A stretch of DNA of 64,000 nt, taken from assembly GCA_036000865.1 (NCBI GenBank), contig DASYUV010000252.1, positions 623-64,622 of the forward strand. Direction: 5' to 3'. This document shows, one piece after another, positions 10,292 through 36,693 of this stretch (the first letter of the stretch is position 1; every line of letters begins with the position of its first letter). The DNA comes from Candidatus Binatia bacterium (lineage in GTDB: Bacteria; Desulfobacterota; Binatia; UBA9968). The notes under the pieces were generated by a model that made no database searches, was not told the origin of the DNA, and was given only the letters and a program-made list of their open reading frames with translations. The translations under genes and the position numbers were made by a program.

Positions 10292-10321
10292 AAATGGTCG
10301 GGGCGAGTGGATTTGAACCAC
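10292..10321. repeat. Distal att direct repeat (orphan 3' fragment of tRNA-Pro)
   Basis: AAATGGTCGGGGCGAGTGGATTTGAACCAC is identical to 57275-57304. Nt 10295-10321 equal the CCA, acceptor 3' strand, T-loop and part of the T-stem of the tRNA-Pro at 57278-57354. Confidence 0.85.
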
Positions 10322-11628: not shown

Positions 11629-12666
11629 TTATTTTACGGTCTTTCGAACTTCTTGAAGTATGGAGTAATCCACCAGAGCAGCCAGAGTCACCGGAGGGGC
11701 ATTGACCGCCTGCTTTCTAGCGTCTTCGTAAGGCGCTTGCAAGTCCGCGAGATCAATCTCTCCGTTGGGAAGAAAAACCCTCATGGCGTCATCGTAAATA
11801 GCATCAAAATTTTCCGGCTTCACGTCCAGCCGCTTCGCAAAGACAGCTTTGACTCGATTCCGATCCGCCTTCATCACTGTCAAGGCTCGGTACAGGGCTC
11901 TTATGCTTTTGCGGATTTCTTCCCTCTTGTCAGTCATCGTCTGGACTCCGATGCCGAGGCCCCCCACCGGCTGCCTGAGATACTGACCGGTGAAGAGGAG
12001 CGGCTTCATGCCGGCTTTCTCCGCCGGGATTTTTTCAATGTTGTTCAAAATGGCCGACTCTACATGCCCCGAGATCAGCGCGGCGATGCGCGTCGGCCCG
12101 CCGCCTATGGCGAGTATTTTCACGTCCTTGCTGGGGTCCAAATTGAAGTGACGGAAGGCGGCTCTGGCATCGAAATCCGTGGCCGAGCCGTATCTTGAAA
12201 TAGCCACCGTCTTACCCTTTAACTGCTCGATGTTCATGATCCCGGGCTTAGTGACAAGATAAAAGAAACTGCCGTTGAAAAAGTTGATCACGGTTTTAAC
12301 CGGAGCCCCGATGGCCGCCGCTTTCACCACGCTGCTGATGCTGGATGCAAAGTCGATGTCTCCGGTTACCAGCCCTTTCATGGCGATGTCCGAGCGGATC
12401 ACCACAATTTTTGAATCAATTCCCTCCGCTTTTAGATATCCCAACTCCTCGGCGACAAAGATGGGCGAAGCCGATACATCCGTCGCCGAGACCGCAAATA
12501 CTACACGTTTGAGACTTTGAGCCGAAGCCGGCCTGGCTTTGAGAATAACAAAGGCGCAAAGCAATAGGAGCAGGAAAGCCGCAGGTCGGAACCCGTTTAC
12601 CCTGCGATTCGTCAAGGAGCTTATAGGCAGCGCGCCGCTATTTTCCACATGACTACTTTTTTGCAT
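11629..12666 (-). CDS. NMT1/SsuA-TauA-type periplasmic solute-binding protein (SBP-1)
   Basis: Signal peptide ...AAFLLLLLCAFVILKARPASA/QS and the AISRYGSATDF motif. An AGGAG RBS precedes it, 11 nt after alpha-1. Confidence 0.8.
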   Translation of the reverse strand: MQKSSHVENSGALPISSLTNRRVNGFRPAAFLLLLLCAFVILKARPASAQSLKRVVFAVSATDVSASPIFVAEELGYLKAEGIDSKIVVIRSDIAMKGLVTGDIDFASSISSVVKAAAIGAPVKTVINFFNGSFFYLVTKPGIMNIEQLKGKTVAISRYGSATDFDARAAFRHFNLDPSKDVKILAIGGGPTRIAALISGHVESAILNNIEKIPAEKAGMKPLLFTGQYLRQPVGGLGIGVQTMTDKREEIRKSIRALYRALTVMKADRNRVKAVFAKRLDVKPENFDAIYDDAMRVFLPNGEIDLADLQAPYEDARKQAVNAPPVTLAALVDYSILQEVRKTVK

Positions 12667-13239: not shown

Positions 13240-13851
13240 CTACTCTACAAGAGGCGATTGTGAGCGAAGCCGCAGGACCGGTTTTTTTTCTGTTTCTTCG
13301 ATATATCCGGCAAAGATGTATTTATTGCGCTTGCCGTCCATATTAAGGTGAGCAACTTTTACCGTCCCCGTTTCAATCTTGGCGACCAGAACGCTCAGTT
13401 CCTTCGCTTCAAGAAAAGCTTGAGCGTTCTTTTTGAATTCTTCCACGCTCGAAACGGTTAAAGTTTTTTTGATTCCGCTGGCGTCGGCGATCTTTTCCAG
13501 ATTGGTGTCTCCCGCCGTGGCGGAAGGGAGTCCTCCCGGGGATTCATAAGCTTCATTATCAAAGATGATGATCCGCAGGTTGGCTGGTTTGTGACGCGCC
13601 ACGTCCGCCAGCGAAGCCAGGTTCATGAGCATGTTTCCATCGCCGTCCAAAGCGATGACTCGTCTCTTCGGTAAAGCTAATGCCAAGCCGAGCGCCACCG
13701 GCGTGCATTGACCCAAGTTGACGTTGTAAAGGTTTGCCGGGGACGCGCGCACGGCGTGCAATTCCAGCGAGGTATTGCCCACGTTGGCAACCACGATGTC
13801 TTCGTCCGCAATGATGGAAGCAAGAATGTCGAGGCACTCATATCGTTTCAT
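13240..13851 (-). CDS. Split ThDP decarboxylase beta subunit (beta-2)
   Basis: The start MKRYECLD overlaps the alpha-2 stop as ATGA. It has LDGDGN-x24-FDNE and the tail NKYIFAGYIEETEKKPVLRLRS. Confidence 0.8.
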   Translation of the reverse strand: MKRYECLDILASIIADEDIVVANVGNTSLELHAVRASPANLYNVNLGQCTPVALGLALALPKRRVIALDGDGNMLMNLASLADVARHKPANLRIIIFDNEAYESPGGLPSATAGDTNLEKIADASGIKKTLTVSSVEEFKKNAQAFLEAKELSVLVAKIETGTVKVAHLNMDGKRNKYIFAGYIEETEKKPVLRLRSQSPLVE

Positions 13852-14348
13852 CGTAACGTCTCCCCGGAAAAAAGCACGCAGATCGGATTTTGCCATGCGA
13901 ACGACGATGCCACGGCATCTTTAATGGCCGTGTCGACCTCGGCAATTTCCCGCACGACGACGTGAGGGATCTGCAACGCCTCGAGGATCGGCTCGGTGGT
14001 AAATTTGTACGTCCGCATCACCCAAAAAGCGTCGCCAATGTCACCGCGATAGGGAACCAGCAATAATAACGGGATTCCCCACAGCTGATTCAGACTGCCC
14101 AGCGGCCAAACTGAAACCAGCAGTCCAGAAGTCGGTATAATCATGGCCGGCACCTTGCCGCCCAAATAAAGGCCAGCACATATTCCCACTCCAATGCCCT
14201 CATTGCTCACGGGTATATAAGTGAATGTCGGGTCTTCGGCGATCATCCTCTGGACGTCGGCAAAACCATGATCAGGCAGAATGGCCACCGAATCCACGTG
14301 AGCCTCTTTAAGCCCCTTTACAATTGCGCTGCTCGTCTTTGCGTTCAT
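13848..14348 (-). CDS. Split ThDP decarboxylase alpha subunit (alpha-2)
   Basis: 166 aa with the VSNEGIGVGICAG motif. It is collinear with alpha-3 (31939-32439) over its full length. Confidence 0.8.
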   Translation of the reverse strand: MNAKTSSAIVKGLKEAHVDSVAILPDHGFADVQRMIAEDPTFTYIPVSNEGIGVGICAGLYLGGKVPAMIIPTSGLLVSVWPLGSLNQLWGIPLLLLVPYRGDIGDAFWVMRTYKFTTEPILEALQIPHVVVREIAEVDTAIKDAVASSFAWQNPICVLFSGETLR

Positions 14349-19487: not shown

Positions 19488-20291
19488 TTACAGATAACCG
19501 TCATTCCCTGCTCTTCGAATCATACTCGGACTGAGTTTATCCTTCAGCTCAAGCGCTGGCTCGCCTGTTTCAGTATCCATCAACGTTTTCGCAATACGGC
19601 GCGCTCCCTTAACGCCGGCCTCCGCTATTTGCTTGATTTGCCGGTAGGGGTATTTTGCCGACGGCCAGCTAAGACTCAGGACGGCGATAGGCCGTCCGTG
19701 GGCAGCGACTATAGGTATAGATGCGGATACCGCGCCTTTGACGGCGGTGCCACGACTCGTCGCATAGCCGCGCTTTTTTATGCGCGCCAAACTGCTCCAA
19801 AGGGCAGCGTTTCTTGTTAAGGAGCCGGAGCCTAACAATTGCATCGCTTCATTTATCGGTAAGAACGCTAAAAAAGCTTTTCCGGCGCTGCCGAACAAAA
19901 TGGAATGCCTTAAACCGAGCGGAAAACTGACTCGCAAAAGATCGTTGCTTTCCACTCTATCAATAACGACCATTTGCTTGCCTTCCCGGATTCTCAACGC
20001 CACCGTAATCCCTAAGGATTCCGACAGCGACCGCATGACCGGGAGGGTGGCTCGTTGTACCTGCTCGTAGTTCGCTGAGACGAGAGCGCGAAATTGCGGG
20101 CCCACGGTATAACGCTTCGTCCGCTGATTTTTTTCCACAAAACCCATCGTTTCCATTACGGCGAGAATCCGATGGATGGTGCTTTTGTCGATCTCGACCG
20201 CTCTCGCCAACTCCGCAAGGCTGTAGTCAGACGCCTTCGCCCGCAGCACCGTCAGCAAATGTAATCCCTTGACTAAGGTCCCTGCTTTCAT
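19488..20291 (-). CDS. IclR-family transcriptional regulator
   Basis: N-terminal wHTH (SLAELARAVEIDKSTIHRILAVMETMGFV) and a C-terminal IclR effector domain. It is the only regulator in the island. Confidence 0.85.
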   Translation of the reverse strand: MKAGTLVKGLHLLTVLRAKASDYSLAELARAVEIDKSTIHRILAVMETMGFVEKNQRTKRYTVGPQFRALVSANYEQVQRATLPVMRSLSESLGITVALRIREGKQMVVIDRVESNDLLRVSFPLGLRHSILFGSAGKAFLAFLPINEAMQLLGSGSLTRNAALWSSLARIKKRGYATSRGTAVKGAVSASIPIVAAHGRPIAVLSLSWPSAKYPYRQIKQIAEAGVKGARRIAKTLMDTETGEPALELKDKLSPSMIRRAGNDGYL

Positions 20292-20576: not shown

Positions 20577-22901
20577 ATGGCCCAATATAAGGTGATAGGA
20601 ACTCCTGTGGAACGAGTGGATGGTCCGGAGATGCTTTCCGGCCAAGCGTTGTACGCACCGGATATGAAACTGCCGGCCATGTTATGGGGAAAGATTTTGC
20701 GAAGTCCGATACCGCACGGAAAAGTTTTGCGCGTCGACGTGGAAAAAGCAAAGAAGCATCCGGGAGTGAAAGCGGTAATTTGCGCCAAAGACGTACCGGC
20801 GCGCCGGTATGGCTATGCCATCGAGGACGAACACATTTTTGCCATCGACAGGGTGCGTTATGTTGGCCAACCGATCGCCGCTGTGGCGGCCGTGGACGAA
20901 GATATCGCGGAAGAGGCGCTCTCATTGATCGAAGTCGATTACGACGAATTACCGGCGGTCTTTGACGCGGAAGAAGCCATCCGCGACGGCGCGCCGTTGG
21001 TGCATGAAGAGCTCGACAAATATAAAGCCCGCTCGGTGTACCTTGCGTCTTGGTACCCGGTGAAGGGGACCAACATCATGCATCAGGCCTCGAACCAACG
21101 CGGCGACGTAGAAGCCGCCCTCAAGAAGTCTGACTACGTTTTCGAAGACACTTTTCGCGCGAGCCAGATCCACCACAGCTACATGGAGCCCCATGCGACA
21201 CTTGTTGCGGTCCGCGGCGGCACGATTACCGTCTGGACCTGCTCCCAAGAAGTCTTTGAGCTGCGGACGGTCATGGCCGGTCTTTTCGGCGTGCCGGAAA
21301 GCAAAATGCGCGTGATCTGCACGAAGGTAGGCGGGGGCTTTGGCGGGAAAATCGAGCCGCGCCTTGAGCCGATCACCATCGCTCTTGCCATGAAGAGCGG
21401 GAAACCGGTGAAAATCGTCATGACAAGGACGGACGAATTTACCGCAGCCGCCGGGTCGACGCCGGCATTGGTGAAACTCAAAACCGGTGTCATGAAGGAC
21501 GGAACTCTGGTCGCGAGAGATATCGACTTTCTCTGGAATACCGGCGCGCATGCCGAAGGATTGGCGCCGAGCAATCGGGCCATGAAGGACGGCATCGGCC
21601 CCTACCGTATCCCTGACATCCGTGTGACCTCCACTCTGGTGTACACGAACAGGATTCGCGGCACGCAACTGCGGGGCTTGGGTGTGCCAGAGGGAGCGTG
21701 GGCCATAGAGTCGCAGACGGATATGATTGCCGAGCGACTGGGCATGGATCCGTTGGAGTTGCGGCTGAAAAACATACTTCATGAGGGCGATATAAATGCG
21801 ATCGGCGACGAGGTGCAGAGTATTGGTTTACGCGAATGTCTGGAAAAAGTCGCTGCGGAGATCGGCTGGGGAAAAGCCAAAGCGAGAAACGTCGGGCGCG
21901 GCCTGGCGGTGATTGCCAAATCGCCAACGACTCACTCCAGCATTTCCGGCGCCCATGTTCTGTTCAACGAGGACGGGAGCGCACAGGTGTTGGTGGGAGC
22001 GTCCGAAATAGGTCAGGGCATGTGTGTGGTCTTGTCTCAAATCGCAGCCGAAGAGCTTGGGATTCCGGTGGAAGCAGTGGGGATCACCTGCGCAGACACT
22101 GGCGCAACGCCCTACGACCGTGGGACTTTCTCGAGTCGAGTTACGTTTTATACCGGCATGGCCGTCAAGAAAGCTGCCGAGGACGCGAAAAAGCAGCTCC
22201 TCGAAATGGCTTCGAAGATGTCTGAGGTTCCGGAAAATGATTTGACGGTCGAGAACCAATGCGTCGTGTCAACGAAGCAGCCGCGCCTTTCACTCCCGTT
22301 TAGAAAAGTTCTGGAACAAGCTCACAATCGAGAGAAACCTATCTTGGGCCGGGGCTGGTATGGAGGAAAAGGCGATTACCCATCGCTCCCTCACAAAGCG
22401 CAGGGAAAAGAATACGTGCCTGGCTGGAAATATGCGGCCCAAGCCGTGGAAGTCGAGATCGACGAAGAGACCGGAATCATCAAAGTAAAAAGAATTGCCT
22501 CCGCCCACGATGTCGGCATGACTTTGAATCCGATCAGCGTCAGAGGCCAGATCACCGGCGGCGTCGTGATGGGACTCGGATACGCGCTTCACGAAAGGCT
22601 GCAGTTTGAAGACGGGAGGGTTATCAATCCCTCATTCATGGATTACAAGTTGCCGTCGGCTCATCAAATCCCGGAAATTGTTTCCATCCCCGTTGAGGTT
22701 CCGCTGCCGGAGGGGCCGTTTGGCGCCAAAGGCATTGGGGAGCTGGCCGTGGTTGGCATTGCTCCCGCTATCGGCAACGCCATTTGCGATGCGTTCAAGG
22801 TAAGGATCAAGGAACTGCCCCTTTTTCCGGAGCGAGTACTCACCGCGTTAGAGAGCGGTGGCGCCAACGATGCCGCGCGTTCTTCCGTGGCGAAGAAATG
22901 A
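20577..22901 (+). CDS. Molybdenum hydroxylase (xanthine dehydrogenase/aldehyde oxidase family) large MoCo subunit, copy 1
   Basis: 774 aa with the GGGFGGK motif, a ...RGLGVPEG loop and the C-terminal catalytic Glu context KGIGELAVVGIAPAI. Confidence 0.85.
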   Translation: MAQYKVIGTPVERVDGPEMLSGQALYAPDMKLPAMLWGKILRSPIPHGKVLRVDVEKAKKHPGVKAVICAKDVPARRYGYAIEDEHIFAIDRVRYVGQPIAAVAAVDEDIAEEALSLIEVDYDELPAVFDAEEAIRDGAPLVHEELDKYKARSVYLASWYPVKGTNIMHQASNQRGDVEAALKKSDYVFEDTFRASQIHHSYMEPHATLVAVRGGTITVWTCSQEVFELRTVMAGLFGVPESKMRVICTKVGGGFGGKIEPRLEPITIALAMKSGKPVKIVMTRTDEFTAAAGSTPALVKLKTGVMKDGTLVARDIDFLWNTGAHAEGLAPSNRAMKDGIGPYRIPDIRVTSTLVYTNRIRGTQLRGLGVPEGAWAIESQTDMIAERLGMDPLELRLKNILHEGDINAIGDEVQSIGLRECLEKVAAEIGWGKAKARNVGRGLAVIAKSPTTHSSISGAHVLFNEDGSAQVLVGASEIGQGMCVVLSQIAAEELGIPVEAVGITCADTGATPYDRGTFSSRVTFYTGMAVKKAAEDAKKQLLEMASKMSEVPENDLTVENQCVVSTKQPRLSLPFRKVLEQAHNREKPILGRGWYGGKGDYPSLPHKAQGKEYVPGWKYAAQAVEVEIDEETGIIKVKRIASAHDVGMTLNPISVRGQITGGVVMGLGYALHERLQFEDGRVINPSFMDYKLPSAHQIPEIVSIPVEVPLPEGPFGAKGIGELAVVGIAPAIGNAICDAFKVRIKELPLFPERVLTALESGGANDAARSSVAKK

Positions 22902-23938
22902 GAATAATAAGGTCGTGCGAGTCAGGATCCTCTAGGGAGACAAAAGGAGCAGTGAAAAGAGTCACGGCATACTTGCTCGTTTTTTTGGTCAGCGCTTGTT
23001 TTGGATACGCCGGCCACTGTGCCGAGCTCACCAAAGTGCGAGTTGGAAGTCTCATCACCGGGGAGTTCAGCCAAGCCTACATTGCGCAGAAAAAGGGTTT
23101 TTTCGAGAAGTATGGCCTTGCTGTTGAATTGATTTATTTCCAAGGCGGGTCTCAGGTGATTCAAGCGATGCTGGGGGGCGACGTTCCATTGACTGTGACT
23201 GCAGGTCCCGAGGGAGTGACGGCGAAGCTTCAGGGCGCTGATATTGCGCTGCTTGCAGCCAACAACCCGACGATGCATTTTACCTTGTTCGTCCCACCCG
23301 AGGTCAAAAATGCAGTTGATCTTAAAGGCAAGCGAGCGGGTGTCAGCCGTTTCGGTTCATCGTCGGACTTCTGCATCAGATATATTTTCAAGTCTCTGGG
23401 GATAGCGGAAAACGACGTTACGATTGTCCAGATCGGCGACAATCCGAGCCGGTTAGCCGCGCTCAGATCCGGCTCAATTCAAGCGTCGGTGTTTACTACC
23501 CCGAATACCGTACGTGCCAGAAAAGCTGGTTTCGTGGGTATGGTCGACGCTTACAAGCTGGGCCTTAAGTTTCACGGCAGCGGCATCGCCGCGACCGGTA
23601 CCTTCCTGCGCGAGAACCGACCTGTCGTCGAGCAGTTTTTCAAGGGGTTTTTGGAAGGTGTGGCCTTTGCGAAACAGCACAAGGATGAGAGCGTTCGTTT
23701 GATTAAGGAGTTCATGAAGCTTAGGGATCAGGACGAGGCCGAAGAGTCCTATCAGGTGATCATCCAGCAGATTCAGCCACGCAAGCCCTATCCCCTAAAG
23801 GAAGGTGTGGAAACCGTTCTTAAGGACCTGGAGACCAAGATCCCCAGGGCCAAGACCGTGAGGGCGGTGGATCTCGTCGACGATAGCATCGTCAAACGGT
23901 TGGACGAGAGCGGTTTCATTGACAGTCTCTATCGATAA
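22898..23938 (+). CDS. NMT1/SsuA-type solute-binding protein (SBP-3), possibly a lipoprotein
   Basis: The ATG at 22898 overlaps the upstream stop (ATGA). An alternative GTG lies at 22952. Signal peptide with a lipobox-like LVSAC, and the GVSRFGSSSDF motif. Confidence 0.75.
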   Translation: MRIIRSCESGSSRETKGAVKRVTAYLLVFLVSACFGYAGHCAELTKVRVGSLITGEFSQAYIAQKKGFFEKYGLAVELIYFQGGSQVIQAMLGGDVPLTVTAGPEGVTAKLQGADIALLAANNPTMHFTLFVPPEVKNAVDLKGKRAGVSRFGSSSDFCIRYIFKSLGIAENDVTIVQIGDNPSRLAALRSGSIQASVFTTPNTVRARKAGFVGMVDAYKLGLKFHGSGIAATGTFLRENRPVVEQFFKGFLEGVAFAKQHKDESVRLIKEFMKLRDQDEAEESYQVIIQQIQPRKPYPLKEGVETVLKDLETKIPRAKTVRAVDLVDDSIVKRLDESGFIDSLYR

Positions 23939-23951
23939 AGGACGCGACACC

Positions 23952-24917
23952 GTGACGCGAAGATTTTTGATTCTCGCTCTGCTCTTGCCCTTTTTTACCG
24001 GGATCGCCAGCGCGCAAACAGGACTAGAGAAAGTTAAAATCGCTGTATCGAGTCGCGGCATCGCTTTCATCGATCTTTATATCGCGCAGGATCGCGGTTT
24101 TTTTCGAGAAGAGGGGCTGGAGCCCGAGATAATCCAGGTGGCGGCGAACGTGGCTACCGCGGCGTTGGTTTCCGGGGAAGTGGATGCGCTAGGGGCAGTA
24201 GGCCTAGCCGCACGCGCGAGCCAATCGGGTTTACCGATTAAGGTGTTAGCAGTGACCGGTCATCGCGCGCTCTTCTGGCTTGTCAGCAAACCGCAGTTCA
24301 AATCCATTCCCGAGCTCAAGGGTATGACCTTGGGAATCACATCGCGCAACGGTAGCCAGCACTTGGTTGCCAACCGGCTTTTAGCAGCCGGGGGCCTCGA
24401 TCCTGCCAGAGATTTGTCGACCGTGGTCATCGGAGGGGCGCCGGCGCTTTTGCAAGCGCTCCTGGCCGGCTCTGTTCAGGTTACTGCACTTTCTCCGCCG
24501 ACGATTATCGTCGCGCGCGATAAGTTCAAAGTAAATATTTTATCCGAAACTCCAAAGGACTTTCTCAGCACTCAGGGAGGCTTTGCCGTGGCCGATCATA
24601 GTCTTGCGGACAAACGTGAGTTTGTGCGCCGCATGATGCGGGCTCGAACCAAGGCCTACCGTTACTTTCGTGAGAATGAAAAAGGGGCGAGCGAGACATT
24701 AGCAAAGTACACAAAACTCGACCTCCCGACGGCCGTCGAGACATATCGCATGTCCCGGTTCGGGTTTACCAATAGCGGCATTCTTACTGACACCGACATG
24801 GAAACATTGCTAAAACAAGACGCGAAGACGCTGGGGCTTGCCCATTCGGCATCGCCCGCGAAGGTGTTCGATTTCAGCGTACAGCGAGAGATCAACCGGG
24901 AATTGAGCATAAAGTAA
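23952..24917 (+). CDS. NMT1/SsuA-type solute-binding protein (SBP-4)
   Basis: The GTG start gives VTRRFLILALLLPFFTGIASA/QT, a signal peptide with a Tat-like TRRFL. It has the SBP fold pattern. The track ORF starts at a TTG at 23919. Confidence 0.75.
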   Translation: MTRRFLILALLLPFFTGIASAQTGLEKVKIAVSSRGIAFIDLYIAQDRGFFREEGLEPEIIQVAANVATAALVSGEVDALGAVGLAARASQSGLPIKVLAVTGHRALFWLVSKPQFKSIPELKGMTLGITSRNGSQHLVANRLLAAGGLDPARDLSTVVIGGAPALLQALLAGSVQVTALSPPTIIVARDKFKVNILSETPKDFLSTQGGFAVADHSLADKREFVRRMMRARTKAYRYFRENEKGASETLAKYTKLDLPTAVETYRMSRFGFTNSGILTDTDMETLLKQDAKTLGLAHSASPAKVFDFSVQREINRELSIK

Positions 24918-25144
24918 ATCCGACATGTCGATCTTTTCAGGCAGCGAAGGATCGTCAAAGAGGCCGGCTATTTCCACGAACAAGGCGTTGAGCCTCGGTG
25001 GATCACCATGAATTCGGACATTTAGGGAATCGGTAAGTTAAAGGGCACGCAGAGTCAATATCGAATGGTAATTTTGGACTCGCGATCTTAGTGGAATTGC
25101 ACGAATGAATCGTCTCACGGAAAATCCTCAGTCGGAGGTTAACG

Positions 25145-26491
25145 GTGCCTTTTAACGATCTAAGAGAGTTCTTGACGTTTCTAGAAGAGAAAGGCGAGTT
25201 GCTCAAGACTAAAAGACCCGTCGACGTAAAATTCGAGATCTCGTCTTACATTCGCAAAACCAGCGATCAGCGCGGTCCGGCGCTACTGTTCGAGAACGTA
25301 AAGAATTTCAACATGCCGGTGGTGGGCGGCGTATTTGCCACACGCGAAAGGGCTTTTCTCGCCCTGGAAACTTCGTCTCTAAATTATGTCCACAAGTTTC
25401 AAAATGCCTTGGATCATCTGCTGCCGCCGAAGATGGTTTCCAACGCGCCGTGCAAGGATGTTATCTACACGGGGAACGATGTCGACCTAACGCAGCTTCC
25501 CATCCCGGTTTTTTCGGAAAAAGATCCCGCCCCTTTCATTACCCTCGGGTTGTCGATCAGTCGAGATCCCAAGAGCGGAGGAAAAAATACGTCGATCTAT
25601 AGACTCCAGCTCAAGGGGCGCAATCGGCTCGGCATCATGGCGCAACATCTCGTTCGCCAGCTGGTTGAGGCAGAATCGGTGGGGAAGGGTCTGCCTATCG
25701 CCGTTGCCATCGGAACAGATCCGGTGATCCCTCTCGCGACCCAGTGGATGGCTCCTTATGGCACCGACGAAATGGCATTGGCGGGTGCACTCAGGGGAGA
25801 GCCCGTTGAGGTAGTTAAAGCCGAAACGGTCGATCTGGAAATCCCCGCCACTGCTGAGATCGTCATTGAGGGAACCGTCTTGCCGAATATAAGAGAGGAA
25901 GAAGGGCCGTTCGGGGAAGTGTCAGGATATTATACTCCGGCAAATCCTAAACCCCTTATTCAAGTAAGTGCGATCACCCACCGCAAAAATCCGATTTTTC
26001 AGGCTGCTCTCACCGGAATGCCGACGACAGAGAATCATATTCTAAAGCAACTGCCGTTGGAGGCGACCTTTTATTGGATGCTCAAAAAGGAGTTTCCTGG
26101 AGTGACCGCTGTTCACTTTCCCGCTGCGGGCACGGTGGGGATGATTTCCGTCATTGCGATGAAACAAACTTATGAGTGCGAGGCGAGAAACGTGATCGCA
26201 ACCATGATGGGCACCCGCCGCAACAAGATCACTATTGTTGTGGACGAGGACATTGATATTTATGACATGGAAAAAGTTCTTTGGGCGATCGCCACACGGA
26301 CTCAGGCGGATGAAGACGTTGTCATTTTCCCTCGTTTGGTAGCGACGGCCATGGATCCTTCGGTGAAGAAACTGCGCGTGGGTTCGAGCCTCGGCATCGA
26401 CGCGACCAAGCCCTTTGGCCAACAATTTGCGGAAATGGTCAGAATCCCCGGTGCGGAAAGCGTTTCGCTGGATGACCTAAAGAAGTACTGA
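25145..26491 (+). CDS. UbiD-family decarboxylase (UbiD-2, short ~450-aa type)
   Basis: GTG start after GGAGG, with the EEGPFGEVSGYYTP motif. Confidence 0.8.
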   Translation: MPFNDLREFLTFLEEKGELLKTKRPVDVKFEISSYIRKTSDQRGPALLFENVKNFNMPVVGGVFATRERAFLALETSSLNYVHKFQNALDHLLPPKMVSNAPCKDVIYTGNDVDLTQLPIPVFSEKDPAPFITLGLSISRDPKSGGKNTSIYRLQLKGRNRLGIMAQHLVRQLVEAESVGKGLPIAVAIGTDPVIPLATQWMAPYGTDEMALAGALRGEPVEVVKAETVDLEIPATAEIVIEGTVLPNIREEEGPFGEVSGYYTPANPKPLIQVSAITHRKNPIFQAALTGMPTTENHILKQLPLEATFYWMLKKEFPGVTAVHFPAAGTVGMISVIAMKQTYECEARNVIATMMGTRRNKITIVVDEDIDIYDMEKVLWAIATRTQADEDVVIFPRLVATAMDPSVKKLRVGSSLGIDATKPFGQQFAEMVRIPGAESVSLDDLKKY

Positions 26492-26616
26492 AAACAAATT
26501 TTAGCAAAGAAGGATGAGAATGATTGTTGTACAAGGAGCCGATAAATACCGCGTCATTGAAGTGGCTTGATCAGAGCGAGCTCAAAGATGCCGCTGTTTG
26601 TCGTTCAGGAGGATAG

Positions 26617-27066
26617 ATGAAATTTCAGGGAAATCTGTTGATCGGACGACCCATAGAAAAAGTATGGGAGTTTTTGTGGGATGTCGAAAAGCTGTCCCAC
26701 TGCATTCCGGGATGTCAGGGAGTTAAGACCTTAAAAGAGCGCGAAAAATATGAATTGAGCGTAAAGGACAGCGTCGGTCCCATTACCGTACAGTTTGAGT
26801 TGTTGGCCAACGTGAAGAAGTTGGAGCCATTGAAGAAAATTGAAATTGCCATGGAGGGGAAGGACTTCAAGGCGGGAGGTGTGCGTCAGACCATGGCGCT
26901 CGCGCTCAGCTCGAAAGGCAATGACACTCAAGTGGATTTTGAAACCGACGTCAACGTGTTCGGAAGGTTAGGCACGCTGGGTTATCCTTTCGTCAAGAAA
27001 AAGGCGGAAGCTGTCATTAAAGAGTTTGGAGACAAGGTTAAAGGCGCTATCGAAGCAAATTCGTAA
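26617..27066 (+). CDS. CoxG-like SRPBCC protein (Mo-hydroxylase accessory subunit G)
   Basis: 149 aa. The WEFLWDVEKLSHCIPGC N-terminus is typical of CoxG. It lies upstream of the FAD and FeS subunits. Confidence 0.75.
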   Translation: MKFQGNLLIGRPIEKVWEFLWDVEKLSHCIPGCQGVKTLKEREKYELSVKDSVGPITVQFELLANVKKLEPLKKIEIAMEGKDFKAGGVRQTMALALSSKGNDTQVDFETDVNVFGRLGTLGYPFVKKKAEAVIKEFGDKVKGAIEANS

Positions 27067-27086
27067 CCGGCGCAAGGGAGCAAGTC

Positions 27087-27974
27087 ATGAGTGAGAGGAA
27101 ATTAGTCAGACCCGATACCCTGGACGAAGCGTTGGGTCAGCGTGAGCACTACCAGAAAGATGCGTTGCCCATCGCCGGAGGGCAGTCGCTCTTGGTGTTG
27201 TTGCGGAACAAACTGATCGATCCCAAAGTCTTGATCGATCTCGAGCGGCTTGGAGAGTTGCGAGGCCTGCGGCGTCGGACGGAAGGGATGTCGATTGGAG
27301 CGATGACGACGATCGACAATCTTGCGTCGTCATCCGAGGTGCGAGCGGCGATCCCGATCTTGAGCCAGGCAGCATCCAAGGTGGGTTCGACGGCGATTCG
27401 AAATCTCGGAACGATAGGCGGCAACCTCTGTCACAATGAACCGGGAGCGGACTTGCCGCCGGCACTCTTGGCTGTAGACGCCGTTGCAGAACTTCGCAGT
27501 ACGAAAAAAACAAGAAAAGTTCCGTTGCGGGAGTTCTTTCGCGGTTATTTCGAGACTGCCGTTGCGCCGGATGAGCTCCTTTGCGGTATCGACATTCCAA
27601 ATTTACCCGGTGGAGCGTCGGGCGTTTATCTTAAACACGCCATTAGCGCGGAGGATCTTGCAATTGCGGGGGTCGCCATTGTGCTCATTCCGGATGAGAA
27701 GCGATCTCGCGTGGCGCGAGAGATACGAATCGGTTTGGGAGGCGTGGCCCCGGTGCCTTTTAGGGCGAGCAAAGCTGAAAACGTCGTCCGCGGTGTAGCG
27801 CTCGATGACGCAGTAGTCCGGGAAGCCGGAGAAATCGCGTCATCCGAGGCCGAGCCGATGACCGATCCTCACGGATCCGCCGACTATCGGCGAAAAATGG
27901 TTAAGGTCCTTGTGCGCAGGGCGATCTTAGCAGCTATCGAGCAATCGGAAAGGAACGGTCATGGCAAAGCTTAA
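27087..27974 (+). CDS. Mo-hydroxylase FAD-binding medium subunit (CoxM-like)
   Basis: PIAGGQSLLVLLRNKL FAD-binding motif. There is no Cys-rich insertion, so it is not the HcrB type. Confidence 0.85.
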   Translation: MSERKLVRPDTLDEALGQREHYQKDALPIAGGQSLLVLLRNKLIDPKVLIDLERLGELRGLRRRTEGMSIGAMTTIDNLASSSEVRAAIPILSQAASKVGSTAIRNLGTIGGNLCHNEPGADLPPALLAVDAVAELRSTKKTRKVPLREFFRGYFETAVAPDELLCGIDIPNLPGGASGVYLKHAISAEDLAIAGVAIVLIPDEKRSRVAREIRIGLGGVAPVPFRASKAENVVRGVALDDAVVREAGEIASSEAEPMTDPHGSADYRRKMVKVLVRRAILAAIEQSERNGHGKA

Positions 27975-28425
27975 ACTGCAAATCAACGGCGAAGAGATTG
28001 AGCTAGAAGCAAAGGAGACAATGCTGTTGCTGGATGTTCTCCGAGAAGGCATGGGACTAACGGGTACGAAGCGGGGGTGCGAGACGAGTCACTGCGGCGC
28101 GTGCACCGTGTTGCTGGACGGAATGGCCGTGCATAGTTGCGTGGTTTTAGCGGCGCGATGTGAGGGAAAAGAGATCGCAACCGTGGAGGGATTGGGCGAG
28201 GGAGGCGAGCTGAACGAGCTGCAACGGCAGTTTCTCAAGCACGGCGCGCTGCAGTGCGGCTATTGTACGCCCGGGATTTTGATGGCCGCAACGGCGCTAC
28301 TCCAGCGCAATCCGCGACCGAGTCTGGAGGAAATCAAAATCGGGCTGGACGGAAACCTATGCCGTTGCACGGGCTACACAGGAATCTTCGATGCAATCCA
28401 GGCCTGCGCGCTGGCGGGCAAATAA
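27961..28425 (+). CDS. Mo-hydroxylase [2Fe-2S] small subunit (CoxS-like)
   Basis: GCETSHCGACTV and QCGYCTPG...CRCTGY cluster motifs. It overlaps the medium-subunit gene by 14 nt. Confidence 0.9.
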   Translation: MAKLKLQINGEEIELEAKETMLLLDVLREGMGLTGTKRGCETSHCGACTVLLDGMAVHSCVVLAARCEGKEIATVEGLGEGGELNELQRQFLKHGALQCGYCTPGILMAATALLQRNPRPSLEEIKIGLDGNLCRCTGYTGIFDAIQACALAGK

Positions 28426-28451
28426 ACCCAGCGCGCGGTTGAAGGTTTCCG

Positions 28452-28506
28452 GTTCAAAGTTCAATGTTCCGAAGAGACATTGAACATTGAACCTTGAACG
28501 TTGAAC
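28452..28506. repeat. Palindromic array of TTGAACN heptads (intercistronic hairpin)
   Basis: GTTCAAAGTTCAATGTTC (28452-28469) pairs 17/18 with GAACATTGAACCTTGAAC (28482-28499), followed by one more heptad. The 20-mer at 28487-28506 recurs at 36666-36685. Confidence 0.7.
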
Positions 28507-28531
28507 AAAACGTAGTTCACGAGGCTTGCAG

Positions 28532-30829
28532 ATGATGCAAAAGACGGATGACAAAAAAAGCAAACAGCAGAGTTTCTCTTCCATAGGCCAACCTGCGCCC
28601 AGAATCGAGGGAGTAGAAAAAGTTTCCGGTAGGGCGCGCTATACGGCGGATCATCTGCTGCCGGGAACGATATGGGGCAAAGTTTTGCGCAGCCCCTATC
28701 CGCATGCCCGTATCGTCCGCGTGGACACTGCGCGAGCCGAATCGCAGCCGGGAGTCATGGCGGTCATAACGGCAGCCGATATCCCAGACGTGTTAACCGG
28801 TCGCCGACTGCAGGATATGCCGATGCTGGCGCGGGATCGAGTGCGTTTTATCGGTGAGAAGGTTGCGGTGGTGGCGGCCGAGGAGCGCAATGTCGCCGAA
28901 GAAGCGGCGCAGCTGATCGAGATCGAATACGAGGAGATGCCGCCCGTCTTCGATCCCCTGGTCGCCGTCACAGAAGGCGCGCCCCAGCTTCATGACCAGT
29001 TGAAGAACTACAAGGGACTGCCGCAGCTCGCCTCTGCGGTCAATAACGTATATTCGCATGACGCGTGGCGGCTGGGAGATGTCGAGCAGGGATTTCGCGA
29101 GTCCGATCACATTTTCGAGGACACATTTACGACGCAGCACGTTCATCAAGCTTATCTGGAGCCCCATTCGAGCGTGCTTTCTATCGACAAAAAAACGGGC
29201 TCCATTCATGTCTGGGTGAGCAACAAGGCTCCGTACCAGACTAAGCAAAGTCTTGCGGCGGCGATCGGCGTCCCCGCGGAAAAAATCGTCATTCACGTCG
29301 CTGCGATAGGCGGCGACTTTGGAGGTAAGGGGGCGCTCATGGATCTTCCCCTCTGTTACTTCCTCGCGAAACGAACCGGCCGCCCGGTCCGCATGATCAT
29401 GACCTATACCGAAGAGCTCATGGCCGGAAATCCTCGCCACGCGGCGGTTATCGTCGTGAAGACGGGTGTAAAAAAAGATGGGACGCTTATGGCCAGGCAG
29501 GTCCGGGCTTTTTGGAACGGCGGCGCCTATGGCGCGATGAAGCCCATTCCGTCGGTAAACTTGCCGGGCGCCGTCAAAGCCGCCGGCTCCTACCGTATTC
29601 CCAACGTCAAGATCGACTCTTACGCGGTGTACACCAACAGCGTTCCGTGCGGCCATTTCCGCTCTCCCGGAATGGTACAGCTGGTATTTGCCGGCGAATC
29701 GCAGATGGATATGATCGCCAAATCACTGCAGATCGATCCTCTCGAGATCAGGATTCGGAACGCGCTTCAAGACGGCGATTTGACACCCGGCGAGAGCAAA
29801 GATGGCATGGTGGATGTAAAGTGCCAGGAAGTGTTGCAGTCGGCCGCCGATGCTTCCAATTGGAAGAGATTTAAGAAGTCTCCTAAGGTAGGTCGAGGGG
29901 TAGCACTCTCTTATCGAAACGTTGGGATCGGCGATGCCAATGCTCGATTGAGCGTGGGTCCGGACGGAATTGTCTCACTGTTGATCACCTATGCTGACAC
30001 CGGCACGGGAGCGCACACGATTCTTTGCCAGATGATAGCTGAGGTTTTGGATATTCCATTCAGTCAGGTGAAACTAGAAGTCGGCACGACGGATTGTTTT
30101 CGCTCCGAAGCCGGCACCGGCGCTAGCCGGGTGACCTTTGTGTTAGGACAAGCCGTATTGAAGGCCGTCGATAAGCTGAAGGCGTTGCTGCGGCACCGGG
30201 GAGCGGAAATGCTCGGTGTCGCCGCTGAGGAGATCGCGATCAGAAAGGGGCGGCTTTTGGTGGAACGTCATAGCTCGCGATCTTTGTCGCTCGCACAAAT
30301 TGCCGCAGCTGCCGCAGTGGAAGGCAAGCCCCTAGAAGTGGAAAGCTATTACGAAGCGACTGAGACACCTCCAGAAGGAGTATTCACTGCATGCGTAGCC
30401 GAAGTGTATGTTGACACGGAGACGGGTCAAGTCCACTTACGAAAGCTAAATACGGTTCATGACGTTGCTACGATTCTCAATCCGGTAGGACACCAAGGAC
30501 AAATTGACAGCGGCATTATGCAGGGCGTGGGTTATGCTCTGATGGAAGAGATGGTTTTGGAGGATGGGCGAGTCACGACCCTGAACCTCGGTGAATACAA
30601 GATACCGAACATCAAGGACATCAGTTCTTTGCAAACAACGCTCGTCCGCGGAGAGGTCGGCGCGGCACCGTTCCAAAGTAAGGAGATCGGCGAAAGCGCC
30701 ATCTCCCAGGTCGCGCCCGCGATTGCGAACGCAGTTTATGACGCCGTGGGCGTACGCATCATGGACCTCCCGATTACGGCGGAGAAAGTTTTTCGCGCGT
30801 TGCAGGACCGGCAGATTCGAGGGTCGTAG
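28532..30829 (+). CDS. Molybdenum hydroxylase large MoCo subunit, copy 2
   Basis: ATG at 28532 after GAGG. It has the GGDFGGK motif and the catalytic Glu context SKEIGESAISQVAPAI. It follows the G, M and S subunits. Confidence 0.85.
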   Translation: MMQKTDDKKSKQQSFSSIGQPAPRIEGVEKVSGRARYTADHLLPGTIWGKVLRSPYPHARIVRVDTARAESQPGVMAVITAADIPDVLTGRRLQDMPMLARDRVRFIGEKVAVVAAEERNVAEEAAQLIEIEYEEMPPVFDPLVAVTEGAPQLHDQLKNYKGLPQLASAVNNVYSHDAWRLGDVEQGFRESDHIFEDTFTTQHVHQAYLEPHSSVLSIDKKTGSIHVWVSNKAPYQTKQSLAAAIGVPAEKIVIHVAAIGGDFGGKGALMDLPLCYFLAKRTGRPVRMIMTYTEELMAGNPRHAAVIVVKTGVKKDGTLMARQVRAFWNGGAYGAMKPIPSVNLPGAVKAAGSYRIPNVKIDSYAVYTNSVPCGHFRSPGMVQLVFAGESQMDMIAKSLQIDPLEIRIRNALQDGDLTPGESKDGMVDVKCQEVLQSAADASNWKRFKKSPKVGRGVALSYRNVGIGDANARLSVGPDGIVSLLITYADTGTGAHTILCQMIAEVLDIPFSQVKLEVGTTDCFRSEAGTGASRVTFVLGQAVLKAVDKLKALLRHRGAEMLGVAAEEIAIRKGRLLVERHSSRSLSLAQIAAAAAVEGKPLEVESYYEATETPPEGVFTACVAEVYVDTETGQVHLRKLNTVHDVATILNPVGHQGQIDSGIMQGVGYALMEEMVLEDGRVTTLNLGEYKIPNIKDISSLQTTLVRGEVGAAPFQSKEIGESAISQVAPAIANAVYDAVGVRIMDLPITAEKVFRALQDRQIRGS

Positions 30830-30886: not shown

Positions 30887-31837
30887 ATGATGCCGATAAT
30901 TATCCTATCGTCCTTCTGGTTTTTGCTCTTTCCATATTTCGCGGTGGCTCAACCGCTGAAGGAAATTCGGATCGGATCCAGCGACATTACCGTCAGTAAC
31001 TTGTGTACGTTTTACGCGCGCGATCGAAAATTTTTTGAAGCTGAAGGCATTGACGTTAAGATTATCATTGTCAAAACAGAAGCAGCCCTGGCCGCGTTGG
31101 CGGTGGGGGATCTCGAGTATTCGACGTTAAGTACCTCTTCCATTGAAGCCACGCTCAAAGGCATGCCATTGCGCCTCATCGCCGTGACGAACCGGCAACC
31201 TTTGCTAGGTTTGTTGGTTCGTAAGGGAATCAATAGCGTGCCAGAGCTGCGGGGAAAGAAATTATCGATCAGTTCTTTCGGCGGCGCGATTTATGGAGCT
31301 GCCGTGTATCTCCTCAAGAATCACGGGCTTAGGCCAAAGGAGGACGTTGTTATCTTGGCGGGAGGTTCCAACTCGGCGCGCGCTGCCGCACTTAAACAGG
31401 GAGCGGTGGATGCGGCGCTCTTGAGTTCTCCAGATGACATTAGAACCGCGGGAGAAGGGTTCCGTATCTTACTCGATGTTGGGAGCGATTATCGGCTTCC
31501 GTGGGGGGGCGTCAGCGCGACGCTGGCGAAAATTCGTGGAAATGCCCCTGAAGTTGAAAGGGTCCTGCGGGCGGTCCTGCGGGCCACCAGGGCGATTACG
31601 GACGCGCATAACAAGGATGATGTAACAGGGTGGATCGGGAAATTTTTCAAGCTTGATCGGGCAATGTCCGACGAGTTCTATCGCAGGCTTGTTCCATCTC
31701 TCAGCCCTACCGGGTTCGTGGAGCGTGACAAAATCAAACTGGTTATCGACAACGCTGTCGAGCGGGGCTTGACCGACAAGCCTCTCGATCCCGATGCGGT
31801 GACGGACTTTTCGATCGCCAGACAATTGCGGTTTTGA
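30887..31837 (+). CDS. NMT1/SsuA-type solute-binding protein (SBP-5)
   Basis: GGAGGAGG RBS and signal peptide MMPIIILSSFWFLLFPYFAVA/QP. It belongs to the same subfamily as SBP-4. Confidence 0.75.
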   Translation: MMPIIILSSFWFLLFPYFAVAQPLKEIRIGSSDITVSNLCTFYARDRKFFEAEGIDVKIIIVKTEAALAALAVGDLEYSTLSTSSIEATLKGMPLRLIAVTNRQPLLGLLVRKGINSVPELRGKKLSISSFGGAIYGAAVYLLKNHGLRPKEDVVILAGGSNSARAAALKQGAVDAALLSSPDDIRTAGEGFRILLDVGSDYRLPWGGVSATLAKIRGNAPEVERVLRAVLRATRAITDAHNKDDVTGWIGKFFKLDRAMSDEFYRRLVPSLSPTGFVERDKIKLVIDNAVERGLTDKPLDPDAVTDFSIARQLRF

Positions 31838-31938: not shown

Positions 31939-32439
31939 ATGACGGGTGAAGCAAGCGAAGCCATTGTTAGAGGACTCAAGTCTGCGGGCGTAGACCTGGT
32001 TGCTATCCTACCCGATCACGGGTTCGATCGAGTTCAAAAGGAAATTGCTGAAGATGACCGGTTCACGTTTGTTCCTGTCAGCAACGAAGGAATCGGCGCG
32101 GGAGTGTGTGCAGGAGCTTTTTTTGGAGGTAAGAGCCCTGCGCTGATGATTCCGACTTCCGGTTTCTTGGTCGCGGCCTGGCCGCTGGCCAGCCTGCATA
32201 ATCTATGGAACATCCCTCTCCTATTATTGATTCCGTATCGCGGTGATGTGGGAGACGCGCAGCCGGTCATGAGGACTTACAAGTTTACGACTGAGCCCAT
32301 ATTGCGTGATTTACAGATTCCGTACGTTCTCGTGAGCGAGGTGTCAAAGGTCGAGGGCGCCATCAAAGATGCAGTGGCGTCCGCTTTTGCTTGGCAAAAT
32401 CCAATCTGTCTGTTGTTTACAGGGGAGACTCTGCGATGA
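31939..32439 (+). CDS. Split ThDP decarboxylase alpha subunit (alpha-3)
   Basis: 166 aa with the VSNEGIGAGVCAG motif. It is the closest paralogue of alpha-2. Confidence 0.8.
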   Translation: MTGEASEAIVRGLKSAGVDLVAILPDHGFDRVQKEIAEDDRFTFVPVSNEGIGAGVCAGAFFGGKSPALMIPTSGFLVAAWPLASLHNLWNIPLLLLIPYRGDVGDAQPVMRTYKFTTEPILRDLQIPYVLVSEVSKVEGAIKDAVASAFAWQNPICLLFTGETLR

Positions 32440-33071
32440 AGAGAATTGATTGTCTTAAGGCGCTAGCAGAAATTACCAAGGAAGACGATCTGGTCGTCAC
32501 CAATTTAGGGAATACTCCACACGAATGGCTTTCCGTAAGGCCTTCGAGGGCGAACCTGTACGGGATGAATTTGGGGCAGTGTACGCCGGTGGCTTTGGGG
32601 CTTGCTCTGGCTTTGCCTCACCGGAGGGTTTTTGCGCTCGACGGAGACGGCAATCTCCTTCTGAATTTGGCCTCTTTGGCGGATACCGCCTATCGCAAAC
32701 CGTCAAATCTGAGCATTATTGTTTTTGACAATGAAGCCTATGAATCGCCTGGGGGAATGCCCACCGCAACGGCCCACGGCGTTGATTTAGTTCAGGTGGC
32801 TAAGGGATGCGGTATTAAGAAAAGCTTCACGGCGAGCACCCTCGACGATTTCCGAGAAAGGATCAAGCTTTTTGAGGAAAAAGAGCTGTGTTTTATTGTG
32901 GCGAAAATAGAAACCGGCACGATCGAGAGACCTCCTTATGCGAGTCTGGACTATAAATTCAACAAGTATCTTTTTGCCACCTATATCGAGGAAACAGAAA
33001 AGAAGCCCGTGCTCAGACTGCGTTCCAAATCTCCATTCACGAACCGATTAGATCCGGAGAAGCAAGTCTAG
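32436..33071 (+). CDS. Split ThDP decarboxylase beta subunit (beta-3)
   Basis: ATGA overlap with alpha-3. It has LDGDGN-x24-FDNE and the tail NKYLFATYIEETEKKPVLRLRS. Confidence 0.8.
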   Translation: MKRIDCLKALAEITKEDDLVVTNLGNTPHEWLSVRPSRANLYGMNLGQCTPVALGLALALPHRRVFALDGDGNLLLNLASLADTAYRKPSNLSIIVFDNEAYESPGGMPTATAHGVDLVQVAKGCGIKKSFTASTLDDFRERIKLFEEKELCFIVAKIETGTIERPPYASLDYKFNKYLFATYIEETEKKPVLRLRSKSPFTNRLDPEKQV

Positions 33072-34372: not shown

Positions 34373-34882
34373 ATGAAAGAAACTGTAGCGAGTGAAGTTG
34401 TTGAAGGACTGAAGGACGCGGGGATCAAGTTTGCGTCCTTTTTGCCCGATAGCTGGTTGAGGCCGATTTACTCGCGGCTGTCGCAGGACCCACGTTTCAT
34501 CACAATCCCTGTCTCCAACGAGGGAGTCGGCGTTGGACTGTGCTGCGGGGCCTGGCTGGGTGGTATAAAAGCGGTGATGTTGATGGAGAATACCGGCGTG
34601 CGCATGGCCTGTGATCAACTCGCGCGTCTCGGGATCAGTGTGGGGCTTCCCTGTTTCATGATCATTCCGTACCGGGGAGATATTGGCGACAGCCAGACCT
34701 ATGCCGTAGCGCATGGCCAGACCATGCTTCCGGTTCTCGATGCGCTGCGCATACCTTACTATATAGTGCGCGAGGAAAACCGGATTCGCCAGTCCATCCG
34801 TCGGTGTCTTAAGACGTTGAGCGTCACCAACTATCATGTGGCCATGGTCATGGGCGCCGAAGTCTGCGTCGAGAATCTTTGA
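34373..34882 (+). CDS. Split ThDP decarboxylase alpha subunit (alpha-4, divergent)
   Basis: 169 aa with the VSNEGVGVGLCCG motif. Confidence 0.75.
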   Translation: MKETVASEVVEGLKDAGIKFASFLPDSWLRPIYSRLSQDPRFITIPVSNEGVGVGLCCGAWLGGIKAVMLMENTGVRMACDQLARLGISVGLPCFMIIPYRGDIGDSQTYAVAHGQTMLPVLDALRIPYYIVREENRIRQSIRRCLKTLSVTNYHVAMVMGAEVCVENL

Positions 34883-34902
34883 CGGAGGAGGAGAGCTTCC
34901 TT

Positions 34903-35496
34903 ATGGAAAGAATCGATTGTCTAAAGGCGCTGGTCCCCTATATTAAAGATCAGTTGGTCGTAATCACTTTGGGCCGGACGTCGCTGGAATGGGCCGAAGT
35001 CTGCCCGCGTGAGGGCAACATGTTCAACTCGGGAATGGGTAATCATATTCCGGTTGCTTTGGGATTGGCGAAAGCGCTCCCGCATCGTCAGATTATTCTT
35101 CTGGACAGTGACGGAAGCGTCCTTATGTTGCTTTCAGCCCTGACGACCTTGGGATCGTATCCGGCGCCAAACTTGAAGGTTTTTGTCTTCGACAACGAAG
35201 CTTATGAGGGAAGCGGCGGCCAGCCCAGCGACACGTCCCGGGTGACGGACATTGCGGCCATGGCGCAAGGCGCCGGTGTGTGCGGAGCACTAACGGTCAA
35301 AGACTTGGATTCGTTTAACGCCGCGGCGCGCGACGCCTTGACCAAGGAGGGAATGACTTTCATCGTGGCCAAAATCGAACTGGCCAAGGGACCGGCGCCG
35401 CGCAAGGATGTCGGTCATAAGGAAGGTCTTCTCCAGTTTGTCAGATACGTCGAGAAAACCGAGAATATAGCGGTCCTCCATCGCGAGCATTATTGA
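34903..35496 (+). CDS. Split ThDP decarboxylase beta subunit (beta-4, divergent)
   Basis: ATG at 34903 after GGAGGAGGAG. It has LDSDGS-x24-FDNE (SDG instead of GDG) and the tail LLQFVRYVEKTEN. Confidence 0.75.
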   Translation: MERIDCLKALVPYIKDQLVVITLGRTSLEWAEVCPREGNMFNSGMGNHIPVALGLAKALPHRQIILLDSDGSVLMLLSALTTLGSYPAPNLKVFVFDNEAYEGSGGQPSDTSRVTDIAAMAQGAGVCGALTVKDLDSFNAAARDALTKEGMTFIVAKIELAKGPAPRKDVGHKEGLLQFVRYVEKTENIAVLHREHY

Positions 35497-36665: not shown

Positions 36666-36693
36666 TTGAACCTTGAACGTTGAACTTTTGAAC
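36666..36693. repeat. Tandem TTGAACN heptads (second copy)
   Basis: TTGAACCTTGAACGTTGAAC (36666-36685) is identical to 28487-28506, followed by TTTTGAAC. It abuts the hydantoinase A stop codon. Confidence 0.7.

Follow-up and report, generated by a model that had tools for sequence, protein, structure and literature searches.

We propose that a catabolic operon of a soil Candidatus Binatia bacterium (contig DASYUV010000252.1 of assembly GCA_036000865.1), carried on an island at a tRNA-Pro gene, expresses two molybdenum hydroxylase large subunits, L1 and L2, with a single pair of medium and small electron-transfer subunits (M and S) and a CoxG-like protein, and that L1 and L2 share this pair. 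The analysis covered a stretch of 64,000 nucleotides (nt), hereafter the window. Judging from gene content, gene order and phylogeny, we consider the chances that this explanation is right to be about even. The more interesting result extends beyond the operon. L2 belongs to a subfamily of the xanthine oxidase (XO) family in which a conserved active-site glutamine is replaced by lysine (Lys-type, as opposed to Gln-type), and large subunits outnumber electron-transfer modules genome-wide.

Two large subunits and one M/S pair

The eight genes from L1 to L2 were found in the order and at the coordinates given by the initial annotation, with the expected Pfam domains, and the public gene calls of three independent soil-metagenome contigs that encode identical proteins have an identical layout:

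20577-22901, + strand: L1, Gln-type large subunit of the xanthine dehydrogenase (XDH) family, binding molybdenum cofactor (MoCo), 774 amino acids (aa) (Pfam Ald_Xan_dh_C, MoCoBD_1 and MoCoBD_2)
22952-23938, + strand: exported NMT1/SsuA-type binding protein, lipoprotein-like (Pfam NMT1; ribosome-binding site, signal peptide)
23952-24917, + strand: second exported NMT1/SsuA-type binding protein (Pfam NMT1; signal peptide)
25145-26491, + strand: UbiD-family decarboxylase, dependent on prenylated flavin mononucleotide (prFMN), HmfF-like (Pfam UbiD_N/UbiD/UbiD_C)
26617-27066, + strand: CoxG-like SRPBCC protein, 149 aa (Pfam COXG, residues 5-143, 68.7 bits)
27087-27974, + strand: M, medium subunit binding flavin adenine dinucleotide (FAD), 295 aa (Pfam FAD_binding_5 and CO_deh_flav_C)
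27961-28425, + strand: S, subunit with two [2Fe-2S] domains (Pfam Fer2 and Fer2_2)
28532-30829, + strand: L2, Lys-type XDH-family MoCo large subunit, 765 aa (Pfam; alignment; clade membership)

Full-length identity between L1 and L2 is 36%, and both score above the Pfam cut-offs for the a/b-hammerhead, MoCoBD_1 and MoCoBD_2 domains with near-complete profile coverage. Alignments bear out the earlier observation that both proteins keep the GGK motif and the C-terminal Glu: the cofactor motif and catalytic Glu read GGGFGGK and GIGE in L1, and GGDFGGK and EIGE in L2. Two other open reading frames (ORFs) of 754 and 761 aa, considered as further MoCo-binding L genes in the window, proved to encode a Clp ATPase and PriA, leaving L1 and L2 as the only MoCo-binding ORFs. 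The M and S genes overlap by 14 nt. Signal peptides were present in every NMT1-type protein of the window and in neither L protein, indicating that the enzymes are cytoplasmic and the binding proteins exported.

Our chief reason for thinking that both L proteins rely on the one M/S pair is that two L genes and a single M/S pair have been kept together through turnover of the other genes. We compared eight distinct contexts of the L2 orthogroup, namely the window, genomes G007 and G008, and five metagenome contigs (homologues P0010, P0075, P0085, P0093 and P0063). Seven of the eight hold an L1-type L gene, UbiD, one M, one S and L2, all on one strand; the eighth is degraded. UbiD is thus a constant member of the operon core. 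Among the orthologous operons, the number of substrate-binding protein (SBP) genes between L1 and UbiD is 0, 1 or 2, and in two contexts S and L2 are separated by a DUF3891 gene or by 4 kb of other genes. The G008 operon (locus L014, G008:C6, ~11697-12038) has lost both SBP genes and its UbiD is cut to a 113-aa fragment between L1 and CoxG; L1, CoxG, M, S and L2 are intact. On this comparative evidence, the predicted use of the single M/S pair by both L proteins is well supported.

The initial annotation had already suggested that two L subunits share one module, and this part of it is upheld by the seven conserved contexts and by a ratio of L over S/M genes of about 2:1 in closed genomes, described below. 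Its framing, in which L1 was the subunit without an S or M of its own, has to be reversed. The gene order UbiD-L1-M-S occurs in seven genomes of another family, where M (57-60% identity to the window M) and S (73-75%) come immediately after an L1 orthologue (76-77%). We built trees from every M and S paralogue (23 of each) in the source genome of the window (G000, an 8-Mb assembly whose contigs are given below as C-numbers), together with the G007, G008 and L1-linked copies. The window M and S, those of G007 and G008, and the L1-linked M and S formed one clade without any of the 22 other G000 paralogues (FastTree); the M clade had IQ-TREE support of 100/100, and the S clade with the L1-linked S genes was fully supported (FastTree). 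Phylogenetically, therefore, the window M/S pair is the inherited partner of L1, and it is the clade of L2, not L1, that is habitually orphan. As reconstructed from gene order, the ancestral unit was UbiD-L1-M-S, which is still present in another family, and in the window lineage L1 was split from M/S by inserted SBP genes, a different UbiD and CoxG. The active-site residues of L1 are canonical (Gln, GGGFGGK and the catalytic Glu), and its orthologues share 76-84% identity.

In the proposed mechanism, L1 and L2 would each assemble with the same M and S to give L1-M-S and L2-M-S enzymes, each of which would hydroxylate a different intermediate or oxidise an aldehyde. Electrons released at Mo would travel via both [2Fe-2S] clusters to FAD, CoxG would present the quinone that accepts them, and the HmfF-like UbiD would decarboxylate a (hetero)aromatic acid of the same pathway. 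Genome-wide, ~46 L proteins would draw on ~24 S/M sets, including CoxG-M-S modules that lack an L gene, with the Lys-type L proteins acting as plug-in catalytic subunits. CoxG has been shown experimentally to carry quinone and to dock at the FAD subunit of the Mo-dependent carbon monoxide dehydrogenase (CODH), and is also found with other XO-family enzymes (PMC12202499). By analogy, the window CoxG-like protein is probably a quinone carrier to the FAD subunit; it consists of the domain alone (residues 5-143 of 149), leaving no room for a linker and membrane helix.

All genes between 20577 and 35496 lie on one strand. An intrinsic-terminator scan found no terminator-like sites in the intergenic gaps, with total matches at chance level, and Rfam found no riboswitch or Moco RNA motif in the operon. 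A single transcription unit is plausible from this arrangement. A 35-nt direct repeat (10287-10321 and 57270-57304, 34/35 identical) brackets ~47 kb including the operon, and its second copy overlaps the 3' end of a tRNA-Pro(CGG) gene at 57278-57354, indicating that the whole catabolic region is an integrated island. An island location is consistent with the patchy occurrence of the operon: orthologues that share more than 75% identity with L1 were found in only 2 of 24 same-genus genomes but in 7 of 11 genomes of another family, a tally that takes in the unpublished genome G005, on which no claim rests.

The Lys-type subfamily and the excess of large subunits

In structure-linked alignments, L2 carries Lys opposite the conserved active-site Gln of 1rm6_A, 4zoh_A, 1t3q_B and 8uem_A. 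Gln occupies this column in other paralogues and in 4-hydroxybenzoyl-CoA reductase (4-HBCR), S. tokodaii 4ZOH, quinoline oxidoreductase (QOR) and CoxL. The conserved Gln hydrogen-bonds the apical Mo=O, as do Gln767 of bovine XDH, Gln240 of CODH and Gln224 of QOR. L2 is a divergent member of the XO family at this position, and L1 is standard there. The Lys-type signature consists of S-N-K, GGDFGGK (not GGGFGxK) and N-P-R-H, with the catalytic Glu kept. The Arg of N-P-R-H in L2 aligns with an Arg of HcrA of 4-HBCR and lies at the position of XDH Arg880. This K/D/R-H/E signature was invariant in 105 full-length L2 homologues and spans at least five phyla (Binatia, Dehalococcoidia/Chloroflexota, Acidobacteriota, Myxococcota, Tectomicrobia and Eisenbacteria), and soil metagenomes contain abundant L2 orthologues (68-91% identity). 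The conserved Lys/Arg/His pocket suggests that the substrate of L2 is anionic. Lys-type L genes adjoin decarboxylases of three classes (UbiD, Amidohydro_2 and split ThDP, that is, thiamine diphosphate, enzymes), which suggests that the substrates are carboxylated aromatic or 2-oxo acids.

Most Lys-type genes have no electron-transfer genes beside them. L2 falls in a fully supported clade of 12 G000 paralogues, the other 11 of which have no S or M within 3 kb, and among relatives with closed or near-closed genomes, 17 of 20 L2-type loci have none within 8 kb. For reference genomes we counted loci flanked on each side by 3 kb or more, assigning Lys or Gln type by alignment; 22 of 30 Lys-type loci were without S/M, compared with 2 of 12 Gln-type loci. 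Seven of the eight partnered Lys-type reference loci are ordered L-S-M-CoxG, an arrangement of which metagenome locus L056 is an example. From these gene neighbourhoods, Lys-type proteins are predicted to work with S/M, yet they are mostly encoded apart from them. No constant alternative redox partner was found beside the orphan Lys-type L genes, whose neighbours were heterogeneous, with Amidohydro_2 and UbiD recurring.

The same imbalance is seen in whole genomes. G000 contains ORFs for ~46 full-length L, 26 S, 23 M, 6 CoxG and ~70 UbiD proteins, and 22 of its L genes lack an S or M gene within 6 kb. Similar L:S:M ratios in five closed genomes of the same order (33:16:15, 28:18:17, 33:20:19, 40:24:24 and 40:24:23) ruled out an assembly artefact as the source of the L excess. 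Two CoxG-M-S modules of G000 lie on contigs without any L gene, C84:12801-14648 (47 kb) and C313:90938-92806 (103 kb) (loci L139 and L140).

The L genes are linked to UbiD in the genome as well as in the operon. Of the 46 L genes, 15 have a UbiD gene within 3 kb, whereas 500 trials of random placement gave 3.0 on average and never more than 9; an SBP gene lies within 3 kb of 12 of the 46, where 13.4 would be expected at random. The L-UbiD link is therefore real, and SBP adjacency reflects background density. The SBPs, which the initial annotation had placed in the transcription unit, were rejected as partners specific to L, since their adjacency is the background expected from ~400 copies per genome. 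In the 8-Mb G000 assembly, ~400 ORFs encode signal-peptide-bearing NMT1/SsuA-type SBPs. A one-strand cluster at C230:537-6657 (L138) encodes a CoxD-like AAA ATPase, CoxE (VWA), XdhC/CoxI (two ORFs), a CTP-dependent riboflavin kinase and a UbiX-like flavoprotein, along with an FMN-dependent dehydrogenase-like protein (possibly a type-2 isopentenyl diphosphate isomerase) and a PNPOx-like protein. Within G000, XdhC_CoxI occurs only in this cluster, and the Flavoprotein family only there and in a probable CoaBC. MoCo-enzyme maturation and prFMN supply are thus encoded together, once in the genome, tying the L and UbiD families to each other. Together, the L-UbiD link and the C230 operon suggest that hydroxylation combined with decarboxylation is one of the major ways in which these organisms degrade recalcitrant aromatic acids.

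We suggest tentatively that Lys-type proteins may be widespread, uncharacterised 'plug-in' subunits that dock interchangeably on a few generic CoxG-M-S modules, in cis (as L2 would on the module of L1) or in trans, and that the Gln-to-Lys exchange may bring a chemistry or substrate class undescribed for the XO family (anionic aromatic acids or aldehydes from UbiD, Amidohydro_2 or ThDP decarboxylases). On this view a small set of FAD/FeS modules would supply at least a dozen catalytic subunits in each cell. We regard this as possible rather than probable. A full-text literature search of incomplete coverage found no description of orphan L subunits, a Lys-type active site or an L excess. XO-family enzymes are normally treated as fixed, co-encoded L-M-S complexes, and the Lys-type subfamily is mostly partnerless in Binatia, Dehalococcoidia, Acidobacteriota and further phyla from soil and marine habitats. 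If modules are shared, the assembly rules of the XO family need revising, and surveys that count 'CO/xanthine dehydrogenases' in the genomes of uncultured soil bacteria misinterpret what is a large modular toolkit for the catabolism of aromatic or anionic acids. The window operon is the simplest test case, with two L, one M/S, one CoxG and one UbiD, and could be cloned as a 10-kb piece.

Flanking genes and intergenic features

Beyond the eight genes, the following features flank or interrupt the operon:

19488-20291, - strand: IclR-family regulator (Pfam HTH_IclR and IclR_C; position matches public gene calls)
28452-28506, + strand: TTGAAC heptad array and hairpin in the S-L2 gap (fold, pattern count)
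30887-31837, + strand: exported NMT1-type binding protein, 3' of L2 (Pfam; signal peptide; kept after L2 in orthologous operons)
31939-33071, + strand: split ThDP enzyme, ComDE-like, with TPP_N at 31939-32439 and TPP_C at 32436-33071 (Pfam)

The IclR gene is divergent from L1 across a gap of 285 nt, and its product is likely the local regulator. The ATGA by which the initial annotation had joined L1 to the first SBP gene is present at 22898-22901, but the overlap itself is ambiguous, because the SBP could start at ATG 22898, GTG 22952 or TTG 22985 and two gene callers disagree. A strong AAAGGAG ribosome-binding site precedes the GTG at 22952, which leads directly into a lipoprotein-type signal peptide (LVSAC). 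No ATP-binding cassette (ABC) permease or ATPase was seen among the scanned window ORFs of at least 150 aa.

The S-L2 gap can form a hairpin of 17-18 bp from inverted and direct TTGAAC heptads (-33.8 kcal/mol, z -2.7), and the heptad pattern was counted 4 times against 0.01 expected. We rejected the hairpin as a conserved regulatory element, as it is absent from the orthologous gap of G007 and the array is limited to the lineage of the window. A 20-nt block of the array is repeated exactly at 36666-36685 of the window. Split ThDP pairs (TPP_N plus TPP_C, ComDE-like) number ~18 in G000, several of them in the window (13240-14348, 31939-33071 and 34373-35496).

Alternative explanations and comparison with known systems

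Several observations weigh against a shared M/S pair. The operon gaps of 227 nt (24917-25145), 125 nt (between UbiD and CoxG) and 106 nt (between S and L2) would allow separate promoters, as would the insertion sequence (IS) element found between UbiD and CoxG in one orthologous operon. CoxG is present in five of the seven two-L operons and absent from two. The CoxG proteins of Lys-type modules, including that of C313, form a clade of their own that excludes the window CoxG, which instead joins those of C84 and C79 on long, weakly supported branches. The adjacency counts come from related genomes and loci, which overstates their independence, and the Gln-to-Lys exchange could mean that L2 is not a conventional hydroxylase. 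The main alternative, which we think unlikely, is that L2 is only co-regulated with the window M/S and draws its partners from C313, whose Lys-type-specific S-M-CoxG module would act in trans. The placement of the C313 CoxG accords with this. In the closed relatives G025 and G029, orthologues of the C313 S and M belong to an S-M-CoxG set next to a Lys-type L gene, and the remaining 11 Lys-type L genes of G000 in any case need partners encoded elsewhere. Linkage of S followed by L2 has nevertheless been kept in seven of eight contexts despite turnover, which is hard to explain if the window M/S is irrelevant to L2.

Another reading is that the enzymatic partner of L2 is the split ThDP enzyme and not UbiD. 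In that case, an anionic 2-oxo acid would be converted to an aldehyde and then to an acid by L2 acting as a Mo aldehyde oxidoreductase, and L1 and UbiD would form a separate hydroxylation/decarboxylation pair that supplies M/S. In almost all contexts L2 or its orthologue has a split pair as a neighbour, as do 7 of 49 Lys-type and 0 of 29 other reference L loci; inside G000, however, the association is weak (2 of 12 Lys-type and 1 of 34 other L genes). Aldehyde oxidoreductases are established members of the XO family, PaoC, 4ZOH and MOP are among the PDB matches, and the Lys/Arg/His pocket would suit an anionic aldehyde, but the equivalog models for aldehyde oxidoreductases were not reached. 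Lys-type L genes, moreover, adjoin UbiD and Amidohydro_2 decarboxylases as well as the split ThDP enzyme. We consider the ThDP route somewhat improbable.

An Hmf-type furan pathway, in which UbiD converts 2,5-furandicarboxylate (FDCA) to furoate and an HmfABC-like enzyme then hydroxylates the furoyl moiety, has little probability in our assessment. Its basis is that the best solved relative of the window UbiD is HmfF (6H6V, 312 bits), with YR and EGPFGE catalytic motifs in the alignment and a His opposite His297 of HmfF, the furan-specificity residue (PMC7976604). Both L proteins also score best against the alpha subunit of 4-HBCR, which handles a CoA thioester. Yet homologues of HmfD (furoyl-CoA synthetase) and HmfE (hydrolase/hydratase) were not found in the window, there is no adjacent hmfG/ubiX, and with ~70 UbiD paralogues in the genome, closeness to HmfF is weak evidence for the substrate. 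The HmfABC/HmfF analogy drawn in the initial annotation accordingly holds for the decarboxylase (6H6V, His297) and fails for the rest, given the missing CoA ligase and hydratase and equivalog cut-offs that were not reached. It is very improbable that one L is simply a redundant or decaying paralogue and the arrangement without functional meaning. The family is greatly expanded and the operon sits on a mobile island, and the G008 operon has lost its SBPs and most of UbiD; against this, both L ORFs are intact with all three domains fully covered, orthologues are retained across many samples (76-84% identity for L1, 68-91% for L2), and the L2 signature does not vary among the 105 homologues.

We placed L1 and L2 relative to characterised enzymes by their NCBIfam and PDB bit scores, used as a proxy for phylogeny, and neither L reached an NCBIfam equivalog cut-off. 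The best solved structure for L1 and L2 was HcrABC, the 4-HBCR of Thauera aromatica (1RM6; TIGR03193-03195; 382 and 339 bits), which has the three-subunit L/M/S architecture of the window system, and its alpha subunit was also the best NCBIfam model (581 bits for L1 and 503 for L2; cut-off 994.55). The beta and gamma equivalogs were likewise not reached (133 bits against 404.55 and 183 against 257.8). The window M (295 aa) aligns to the HcrB model (321 positions) only as two disjoint segments and gives no indication of the additional [4Fe-4S] loop by which 4-HBCR is defined, making reductive chemistry of the 4-HBCR type unlikely. HcrA, moreover, has Gln where L2 has Lys, and the window has no CoA ligase. 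The Mo-CODH CoxSML with CoxG (M. smegmatis 8UEM; A. carboxidovorans 1N5W) resembles the window in combining L/M/S with an adjacent SRPBCC CoxG. Neither L, however, has the AYxCSFR loop of CODH (L1 reads ...GTQLRGLG... and L2 ...CGHFRSPG...), their NCBIfam CODH scores were 260-344 bits against cut-offs of 950-991, and the M. smegmatis CoxG has the linker and membrane helix that the window CoxG does not.

The HmfF/HmfG plus HmfABC system (Cupriavidus basilensis; PtHmfF 6H6V) pairs a UbiD-type decarboxylase with a three-subunit XDH-family enzyme, as in the window, but has one L and a CoA-thioester substrate for the hydroxylase, whereas the window has two L genes and no equivalents of hmfD, hmfE or hmfG. 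The canonical furoate cluster is hmfABCDE (PMC8091172). Pfam scans found no Flavoprotein/UbiX, AMP-binding ligase or hydratase in the window; UbiX is on contig C230. In picolinate and other N-heteroaromatic acid pathways, a Mo hydroxylase is followed by a non-oxidative decarboxylase, for example PicC (Amidohydro_2). At the level of pathway descriptions, the logic in common is to hydroxylate an electron-poor ring carbon and then decarboxylate; Lys-type L genes of relatives adjoin Amidohydro_2 or UbiD, and the decarboxylase of the window is of the UbiD type.

The L, S and M subunits of XO-family enzymes normally form a tight stoichiometric complex, and sharing of subunits would be unusual. Rieske oxygenases and bacterial P450s, which belong to other protein families with other cofactors, do place several catalytic subunits on one reductase or ferredoxin. 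Like the genome of the window, these systems combine many catalytic paralogues with fewer electron-transfer modules, some of which have no catalytic partner.

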